A stretch of 11,170 nt of DNA, from the UHGV virus genome UHGV-1780727; one strand, 5' to 3'. The position numbers were made by a program. Position 1 is the first letter of the stretch, and the number at the start of each line of letters is the position of its first letter. This stretch comes from a virus. Below, in pieces: positions 9,001 through 11,170 of the stretch.

Positions 9001-11170
9001 GCGTGTTTTGACATGAAGCCACGAAATGCTTCCTCACCAGCCTCCCGGGCTTTACGGTACTCCCGGTACAGAAAGGCCTCATCCACCGAATAACCGAGAT
9101 TCGGGTTAACCATGGCGAGGTTTTCCATCAGCAGGTGAGCCCCGCTTTCCACCATTTCAGGAGGATGCTCAAAAATCACCGGCAGAAAGTGCGGATCATG
9201 AATTTTGCCGTCACGGACATCCCGGGCATACTGCAGTTTCTGTCTGAACACCCCGGCGGGCGGTTCATTCGACTGGGTGGTCGTATACACCACAAACCCT
9301 TCCGGACGGGAGGCAAGCCCGCCGATGGCTTCACGTAGCATGTCTTCCGCCTTGTACTGCTTGCCAAACAGCCACAGTTCATCAATCAGTGTCCCCACGG
9401 ACTTGATACCGGACACCGTATTCGGATCGGCTGCCACCACCTTCAGGGTGGTGTCCGTCACCCGATGGGTGATGGTCCGGATATGTGTCTGCACCTGACA
9501 GAGGTCATCCAGATCATCGTCCCGTCGTACCATATCCCTGGCAGGGTTGAAGGCGTTAGCCGCCACCTCCACGGTCGGGGCCAGAATGGTGTAGCCCGCC
9601 GCCTGCCGCCAGTTCAGTAACAGCGCCGTCATCATGATCCCCGCAGCCAGCGTGGACTTACTGTTTTTCTTGGGGATAAGGATAAACACTTCCTTGATAT
9701 GGCGAACACCGGTCTGCGCATCGTAGGAGCCAAACAGGGCCGCCACCAGGTCAAACACCCACGGTGCACAGGACTCCCCGAATGTCGGGCTACCCGGTGC
9801 ATCCACAATTCGCAGTTGTTTAAAAATCGCCAGTGCATGTGCAGCCTGGTCCGGATAAATCGGAGCCGGAATAATCGACAGCCCCTTTTTCAGGCGCTCT
9901 GCCCAGTCCGGGCAGGCCGTGCTCCACACAGGTATCATCCGTTGCCCTCATTATCATTATTCACCACCAGGCGGGGTGGTGGTGGCACCGCAAAACGGTT
10001 AGCCGCTTTTTTCGCCGCGTCACCTTTTGCCGATTTTTTACCGGCATCCCCTTTTTTATGGTGCGTGAACTGCGCCAGCTTATAAGCCGCATCCAGCGCC
10101 AGCCTGGGGTCGGTATTAATGTTCTCCACCAGAAGACGCCCCATCGCTTTCACCGGATCGGGAAGACCATCCTCCATATATTCAATACCAGGAGACATCA
10201 CCGCGGACGGTGGCATCTCCGGATTGTTTTCGTCCGGCTGTGGTATTGCAGCCGCCTCACGGCGACGGGGTTTATCCTCCTGCTCTGATTTTTTCTGCCG
10301 GTAAACAGGAACCTCATCCACCTCCACCGTCTCGCATTGTTTACGGGCTATAAACGCAAGCACCTCCGGATCTTTTGCCAGCTGCGAGCCTTTAACCCTG
10401 GCGGTCTTCGCCGAATAACCGGCGGCAATGGCTGACGCTGTTTTGTTTTTCCCGGACATGAGCGCCAGCGCAAATTTTCGTTTTTGCGTTGTCAGCACAG
10501 CCTCCTCCCGGGTCCAGAACGCACTCAGCCGGGTATGGTTCAGCCCATTTTTCCCGGCGTCTCATGCCGCAAATGTTAACTGCTGCCTGGTTAACATTTG
10601 CTGAAAAAGCCAGTTAACATTTTTTCCGCACAACAAACTGAATAATAAAGATAAAAACCGCAAAAATGCCCGGACAGCCAGTTAACATGTTAACTGCCCT
10701 GAAACGGGAATTTTTTCTCTGCGTGAGAGGGGGGGCGGTGTCCAAAGCGATCTTTTTTTACGCCGGATGATACCCCCCCCGGGTCGGGTTACAGTCCGGT
10801 GATGTCGTCCGCTCTGCCACTACCTCCGGACACCTCCGGCAGCGTCGGGTCTGGCATACCACTCGCCGCTTCACGAGCAGACTTTTGTCGATGGCATTCG
10901 GTACAGAGCGTCCAGAGATTCGTCTCCTCATTACCACCACCGAACTGAAGTGCAATTCGGTGATCGAGTTCACTGTCACAGAGGTCAACCACACGACCAC
11001 AGAGACAGCACTGCCCGGCATCCCTGAGCCAGATATGACGCTTGAGGGAAACACGTGCACTGCCACTGACACGACGCTGTTCACCCTTCAGAATATTCAC
11101 CCGTCGGGTATTCAGTGTTTTGATTCTGCTCTGGAGCTGTCTCTTATACACATCTCCGAGCCCACGAGAC

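Follow-up and report, generated by a model that had tools for sequence, protein, structure and literature searches.

Cleavage at the cos site of phage HK97 leaves 10-nt 3' overhangs and is stimulated by the HNH protein gp74 (PMC9410871; PMC11331095). The HK97 packaging motor stalls on the small terminase subunit (TerS) bound at the next cos, and cutting takes place where the large subunit (TerL) meets the portal (PMC10359639). The ends of phage SfI have been mapped by run-off sequencing as a 10-nt gap (PMC3636060). Among the known systems closest to the locus studied here is the Stx1 phage Lys8385Vzw (MT225100), which was induced and whose virion DNA, sequenced from a TruSeq library, was analysed with PhageTerm; it was reported to be a cos phage with 3' cohesive ends and with the cos sequence CGCCCCCCCT at the genome end (PMC7946995, Zhang et al., 2021). 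The cos coordinates in that paper (50,977-50,953) are impossible for a genome of 50,953 bp; the deposited record, MT225100.1, does end in CGCCCCCCCT.

The window analysed here is a stretch of 11,170 nucleotides from the virus genome UHGV-1780727. Its minus strand carries an HNH gene, the cos site, terS, terL, and then a protease-capsid fusion gene and a portal gene. The HNH endonuclease gene (10789..11136, minus strand) is gp74-like (Pfam PF01844, E = 7e-7); its stop codon is at 10789-10791, its 5' end is lost at the contig end, and its homologue in Lys8385Vzw is 366 nt long. The listed start of this open reading frame (11151) falls within an untrimmed Nextera transposase adapter (CTGTCTCTTATACACATCTCCGAGCCCACGAGAC) that occupies 11137-11170, and the true gene runs off the contig at 11136. 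The terS gene (9935..10498, minus strand) belongs to Terminase_2 (PF03592), while terL (8277..9938, minus strand) matches PF03354 and PF20441, the family with an HK97-like ATPase and an RNase-H-like nuclease. The N-terminus of terS (VLTTQKRKF) aligns with those of relatives; a start at the upstream TTG at 10543, as in the annotation of Lys8385Vzw (record position 185), was rejected because homologues favour the GTG at 10498. Between HNH and terS lies a non-coding region of 290 bp (10499-10788), which holds a run of seven G (G7) and a run of eight C (C8), the latter ending 8 nt short of the HNH stop codon. By the Pfam assignments, the site lies between the HNH gene and terS-terL, with all of these genes on a single strand. 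A more usual gene order is terL, portal, protease and capsid; in the window (4700-8213), terL is followed by a 645-aa protease-capsid fusion (Peptidase_S78 plus Phage_capsid) and then by the portal.

HK97 resembles the window in the order HNH-cos-terS-terL, in the TerL Pfam families, in a 10-nt C-rich end preceded by GAC, in a G tract (G9) located 32 nt upstream of that end, and, on the left-end side, in an A/T tract that falls within about +12 to +30. It differs from the window in its TerL, which is only ~22% identical (through SfI), in its TerS, which is of a different family, in its overhang (CGCCGCCAAA), in having no GTTAACAT repeats, and in the location of the G tract, 260 bp past the HNH stop codon. 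The genome records of HK97, SfI, D3 and phiE125 end alike, with GAC and then a 10-nt C-rich end, which in SfI is TGCCCGCCCC; in both D3 and SfI, GGGGNGGGGCGGG is found 30-31 nt upstream of the end. The D3 record ends in GGACAC-CGCGCCCCCA, close to the majority Escherichia coli allele described below, GGACAC-CGCGCCCCCT, despite a TerL identity of 21%. The left-end (TerS side) sequences of D3 and SfI/SfV are unrelated to that of the window. A tblastn search with TerL recovered relatives that include SfI, phi644-2 and cos phages of Gordonia and Paenibacillus; those relatives that we recognised as characterised are all 3'-cos, HNH-associated phages.

The cohesive end as mapped in Lys8385Vzw

The sequence CGCCCCCCCT is the reverse complement of window positions 10728-10737. 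Position 1 of MT225100.1 is the complement of window position 10727, and from there the two sequences are 99.8% identical over 428 bp (window 10300-10727), into terS, with the same gene order. MT225100.1 ends in ...GGACACCGCCCCCCCT and begins with CTCACGCAGAG..., and the window is identical across this junction; at the right end, identity with Lys8385Vzw extends from GGACAC onward through the cohesive end. Upstream of this the two differ: the upstream tract is a G7 that passes directly into ATCATCC in Lys8385Vzw but G8-TATCATCC in the window, and the spacer and HNH differ by a few substitutions. From the PhageTerm result for Lys8385Vzw and the record ends, the 10-nt 3' cohesive end (the cosN core) is placed at 10728..10737 and reads 5'-CGCCCCCCCT-3' on the minus strand, which is the packaging strand, and AGGGGGGGCG on the plus strand. 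Because the mapped end of Lys8385Vzw coincides with this segment, the G7 run that it contains is, judging from this near-identical phage, the core of a 10-nt 3' overhang in an HK97-type, HNH-associated terminase system. The 3' polarity is based on one PhageTerm analysis, that of Lys8385Vzw, together with what the TerL family suggests. From the same alignment we infer nicks in the minus strand between 10728 and 10727 and in the plus strand between 10737 and 10738; which strand each protein would nick is likewise a matter of analogy.

We consider, at a probability of roughly 0.85, that the locus is the cos site of an HK97-type, HNH-assisted terminase, carried by lambdoid (Stx-converting) prophages of E. 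coli that form a very common family, with G7 as the cohesive end. As a cos site already mapped in a near-identical phage, it is ordinary and already known, and the element in this window may be a defective prophage. The element is present in 1203 of the 5426 complete E. coli genomes, with up to seven copies per genome. A match to the 351 bp surrounding the site is found in 94 phage records, most of them Stx1a-, Stx2a- and Stx2c-converting phages; further matches are to BP-4795, 2851, 1717 and YYZ-2008. The assignment tells where the physical genome ends lie in a prophage family that about a fifth of complete E. coli genomes carry, many Stx1 and Stx2 phages included, with the complement of 10727 as the genome start and CGCCCCCCCT as the genome end. 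This helps in orienting genomes, in judging whether a prophage can be packaged, and in predicting terminase sharing between co-resident prophages.

Pseudomonas phages (TerL 59% identical) lend independent support, as eleven near-identical virion-derived records end at or beside the homologous CGCCCCCGAC. In the coordinates of the Pseudomonas locus (L007), the predicted overhang is at 956-965, the right ends fall at 950 (five records with the same last base), 949, 955 and 966, and the left ends at 952, 964, 972 (two records) and 973 (two records); these records come from Nextera libraries, so their ends are approximate, and one contig reads through to 966. In these eleven 'partial genome' records (MK510966-MK510991; 916-1049 of the same locus), the ends lie within a few bases of the predicted overhang, and records CF53a and CF121c have 30 and 95 extra unmatched bases, respectively, at their right ends. 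Two other sets of records were rejected as evidence of termini: those with terS at about 20-35 (vB_Pae_BR123a, Burkholderia vB_E354 and phi330), which are re-oriented or fuzzy, and IMG/VR contigs that start or end near the motif, which are draft genomes with breaks at repeat boundaries.

The G tract upstream of the cut

A GGACAC motif (10738..10743, minus strand; GTGTCC on the plus strand) adjoins the cut on its upstream side and forms the final duplex sequence of the right end. In HK97, SfI, D3, phiE125 and 68 species-level relatives, this pre-end motif is GGACAC, GGAAAC or TAGAC. Next to it is a variable spacer (10744..10764, minus strand), which includes a T7 run at 10753-10759 (A7 on the packaging strand), is the part least conserved in comparison with Salmonella phage FSL SP-016, and is 20-23 nt long among 99 related copies. 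The G tract and its adjacent block (GGGGGGGG-TATCATCC on the packaging strand; 10765..10780) follow, and this block is identical in SP-016. C8 (10773-10780 on the plus strand) is G8 on the packaging strand, with 35 nt between the end of the tract and the cohesive end downstream of it.

The two runs vary in different ways among the 99 copies. The length of the G block at the cohesive end is fixed in 98 of them, and its alleles are GGGGGCGCGG (82/99, overhang CGCGCCCCCT) and GGGGGGGCGG (15/99, overhang CGCCCCCCCT), the latter being that of the window, Lys8385Vzw and SP-016. The C tract is 5-13 long (modes 7 and 8), has a leading A in some copies and lacks it in others, and varies in length independently of the G allele. 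Since Lys8385Vzw, which was induced and packaged, has C7 without the A, the exact length of the C tract is not critical. The two cohesive-end alleles, CGCGCCCCCT and CGCCCCCCCT, are one base apart and both are in circulation in E. coli prophages; annealing of an end of one type to an end of the other would leave a mismatch, and this could affect mixed concatemers or the transduction of cos plasmids.

A common layout was found across HK97-type cos sites: a G-rich run, then 30-35 nt beginning with T/A-(C/G)AAA, then GGAC(AC), and an end of ~10 nt that is C-rich in most of the phages listed here. The G run is located 30-36 nt upstream of the cut in HK97, SfI, D3, phiE125, phi644-2, Gordonia phage Herod and the Pseudomonas and Burkholderia relatives. 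Besides G9 of HK97, the runs and their distances to the end are GGGGAGGGGCGGG in SfI (31 nt), GGGGTGGGGCGGG in D3 (30 nt), GGGGAGGGGGG in phiE125 and phi644-2 (32 nt), GGGGGGCGGG in Herod (32 nt) and GGCGGGCGGGG in Geobacillus PK3.5 (about 34 nt); in Klebsiella KpLi5, a G8 run was placed by eye 32 nt from the homologous TGCCGCTTCA. The position of the G run is taken by a C run in Paenibacillus phage Tadhana (CCCCCCCACCC, 30 nt to the end) and in a prophage of Massilia sp. (CCCCCACCCCCCC), and what is recognised may be a G·C homopolymer duplex, whichever strand carries the G.

For a species-level sample of the terS relatives free of selection by hand, one locus per species was taken, which gave 74 loci with full flanks, 68 of them with the conserved left-end block. 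A run of at least five G within 65 nt upstream of the inferred end was present in 60 of the 68 (88%), and in 54 of those 60 it was located at 30-36 nt, while control windows from the same loci contained such a run in 33 of 2220 cases (1.5%). Among the eight loci in which no G run was scored, four were mis-anchored and visibly have a G8 run. The 10-nt end is variable among these relatives, with C7 in only one of the 68. The G tract is found past the HNH stop codon by 260 bp in HK97 and by 125 bp in D3, yet its distance to the cut is kept; the tract is thus part of cos and not of the HNH gene.

Packaging would proceed on the minus strand, so that the DNA below 10727 would be the left, first-packaged end and the DNA above 10737 the right, last-packaged end. 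By analogy with HK97, TerS would bind just inside the left end, and TerL, stimulated by the HNH protein, would make the staggered cut that produces the 10-nt 3' overhangs. The 30-40 bp upstream of the cut would sit in the portal channel when the motor stalls, and in lambda, portal mutations are suppressors of mutations in the upstream termination element, cosQ, as cited in PMC10359639; on these two grounds a cosQ-like role is proposed for the G tract. Located in or at the portal channel while the motor is stalled on TerS, the tract might position or license the terminal cut, with lengths of 5-13 being tolerated. We put forward tentatively that nearly all HK97-type cos sites may have a third element, not characterised before, of which C8 is an instance: a tract resembling a G·C homopolymer, located 30-36 bp (about three turns of the helix) upstream of the cut, which would serve as a cosQ-like signal for termination that the portal/terminase channel reads; this is a possibility worth naming rather than the outcome we would expect. 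Conserved and constant in its spacing from the cut, the G tract is a candidate for the termination (cosQ-like) signal that is missing in HK97 in vitro packaging. If the proposal is true, the slippage-prone length, 5-13 in E. coli prophages, could adjust how efficiently co-resident prophages with shared terminases are packaged. The wide variation in length could also mean that only a loose G-rich character matters.

No description of the G tract was found in the open-access HK97 packaging literature, to which our reading was confined; the older HK97 and D3 genome and cos papers may already mention it. A literature search for the motif strings GGGGGGGCGGTG and CACCGCCCCCCC returned only unrelated human and Drosophila papers. 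What goes beyond the existing descriptions that were found is the occurrence of the G tract (C8 in the window) across the family and the polymorphism of its length, a modest comparative observation.

Alternatively, C8 might have no packaging role and be a slippage-prone spacer that also acts as a hot spot for recombination and insertion at a module boundary. The spread of lengths from 5 to 13 among copies is what such a tract would show, and prophage-module homology breaks at the tract, PPompW having ISEc20 inside it and HNH missing. However, 88% of the species-level relatives have a G run, mostly 30-36 nt away from the cut, as opposed to 1.5% of control windows, and the run is kept where TerL is only ~20% identical and the flanks have diverged, so we regard a tract without function as improbable.

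In the PPompW prophages (LC567822.1, PPompW_132418, 2794-4252), the IS110-family element ISEc20 lies inside the C tract, at about window position 10776, and the sequence beyond it is a tRNA/Q region and not HNH. One IMG/VR contig has the same HNH-less junction without the insertion sequence. Some prophages of the family are thus without HNH: those of the PPompW type keep cos, terS and terL with no adjacent HNH gene, and HNH may be supplied to them by co-resident prophages.

Other readings of the two runs

The cos site of lambda (cosQ-cosN-cosB) can be likened to that of the window in having three parts in the same order relative to packaging, namely an upstream element close to the right end, a nicking site and downstream TerS sites. 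We treat this likeness as a functional analogy only and not as membership. In lambda the overhangs are 5' and 12 nt long, and the system has a gpNu1/gpA terminase and IHF but lacks an HNH protein.

The sequence-only reading had noted G7 (10729-10735) and C8 (10773-10780), separated by 37 nt (10736-10772), beside the HNH stop codon, and these positions were confirmed. It had further suggested a possible cos region in which the runs flank cosN, and in its most specific form this model places cosN inside the ~37 bp between the runs, with the runs as the symmetric arms of a lambda-like nicking site. There is indeed a partial dyad symmetry, G7-N5-TCC and GGA-N5-C8, and the region between HNH and terS is the expected place for cos. 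The cos site does adjoin the HNH gene and the repeats, but the cut falls outside the bracketed 37 bp: the published end of the 99.8%-identical phage Lys8385Vzw is the G7 tract itself (10728-10737), and the segment between the runs is the least conserved part when the window is compared with SP-016. The symmetry is absent from the majority allele GGGGGCGCGG, is not kept in other alleles, and shifts with the length of the C tract. By Pfam the terminase is not of the lambda type but combines Terminase_2 with an HK97-type TerL, and the reported ends are 10-nt 3' overhangs. A symmetric cosN between the runs is therefore very unlikely.

Also very unlikely is the idea that the G7/C8 pair acts in the late transcript, as a hairpin or terminator after HNH that regulates terS and terL. 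The minimum free energy fold of the minus-strand RNA does pair G8 with C7 (-28.1 kcal/mol), but its z-score is -1.29 and 20 of 200 shuffled sequences fold at least as well. The G-block allele and the C-tract length vary independently, with no compensation, the G tract of HK97 and D3 keeps its distance to the cut although it is 125-260 bp past the HNH stop codon, and the overhang is not a C homopolymer in most relatives. A terminator scan found no terminator-like site, and a search of Rfam gave no match at E<=1. Pairing of a C-rich 3' overhang with the upstream G run, as a fold-back or triplex, was also rejected, as most relatives have no C homopolymer overhang and that of HK97 is CGCCGCCAAA.

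On their own, G or C runs of at least 7 are not unusual: the window has three, against a mean of 2.9 in shuffles that preserve its dinucleotides. A G run and a C run of at least 7 each, lying within 60 nt, turned up in only 24 of 2000 shuffles. Stronger evidence than these statistics that the runs are real is that other sequences carry them. A 131-bp segment (10670-10800) that includes both homopolymers is 100% identical in several finished E. coli genomes, e.g., that of O26:H11 str. 11368, and Salmonella phage FSL SP-016, which was sequenced independently, has G7 and C8 of the same lengths as the window. In SP-016 the gap between terS and HNH is only ~106 bp, and TGAGAGGGGGGGCGGTGTCCA and GGATGATACCCCCCCCGGG are kept unchanged while the intervening sequence differs. 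Long homopolymers are prone to sequencing error, the untrimmed Nextera adapter at the contig end points to imperfect read processing, and the G block is 1 nt shorter in one of the 99 copies, but a sequencing or assembly artefact can be dismissed given the identity of the 131 bp in finished genomes, the G7 and C8 shared by SP-016, the G7 shared by Lys8385Vzw, and the recurrence of C-tract alleles 10-30 times across independent assemblies. The earlier caution over exact run lengths was sound insofar as the C tract varies, but the cause is true polymorphism and not sequencing error.

The left genome end and the TerS side

The block at +1 to +31 of the left genome end (CTCACGCAGAGAAAAAATTCCCGTTTCAGGG; 10697..10727, minus strand) contains an A6 tract at +12 to +17 (10711-10716) and is conserved in Salmonella, Pseudomonas, Burkholderia and ~68 other relatives. 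In HK97, the TerS site is at +15 to +29 and consists of an A-tract plus a G (PMC11331095). By analogy, the block is a candidate for the primary TerS recognition site, and TerS would be expected to bind at +6 to +31 of the left end of the window.

Beyond this block, a repeat finder located CAGTTAACAT repeats in 10571..10696: the stretch 10679-10696 is a perfect palindrome, and further copies occupy 10571-10582, 10590-10601 and 10611-10622. The CAGTTAACAT repeat region is probably cosB-like, and the GTTAACAT repeats probably extend the TerS-binding region. Repeated sites resembling terminase-binding sites had been predicted beside HNH and cos from the sequence alone, and they were correctly placed. 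In distant relatives, an inverted TGTTAA...TTAACA is located at an equal distance from the cut, where it overlaps the start of terS.

The distance between cos and terS differs among the relatives. In SP-016 and in the Pseudomonas and Burkholderia relatives, terS starts ~85 bp past the cut, at a ATGTTAAC / TGTTAATGGC..TTAACA motif. In the E. coli family the interval from cos to terS is longer by ~180 bp (window 10499-10696); the added sequence has further copies of CAGTTAACAT, and a relic ATGTTAAC is retained at window positions 10679-10696.
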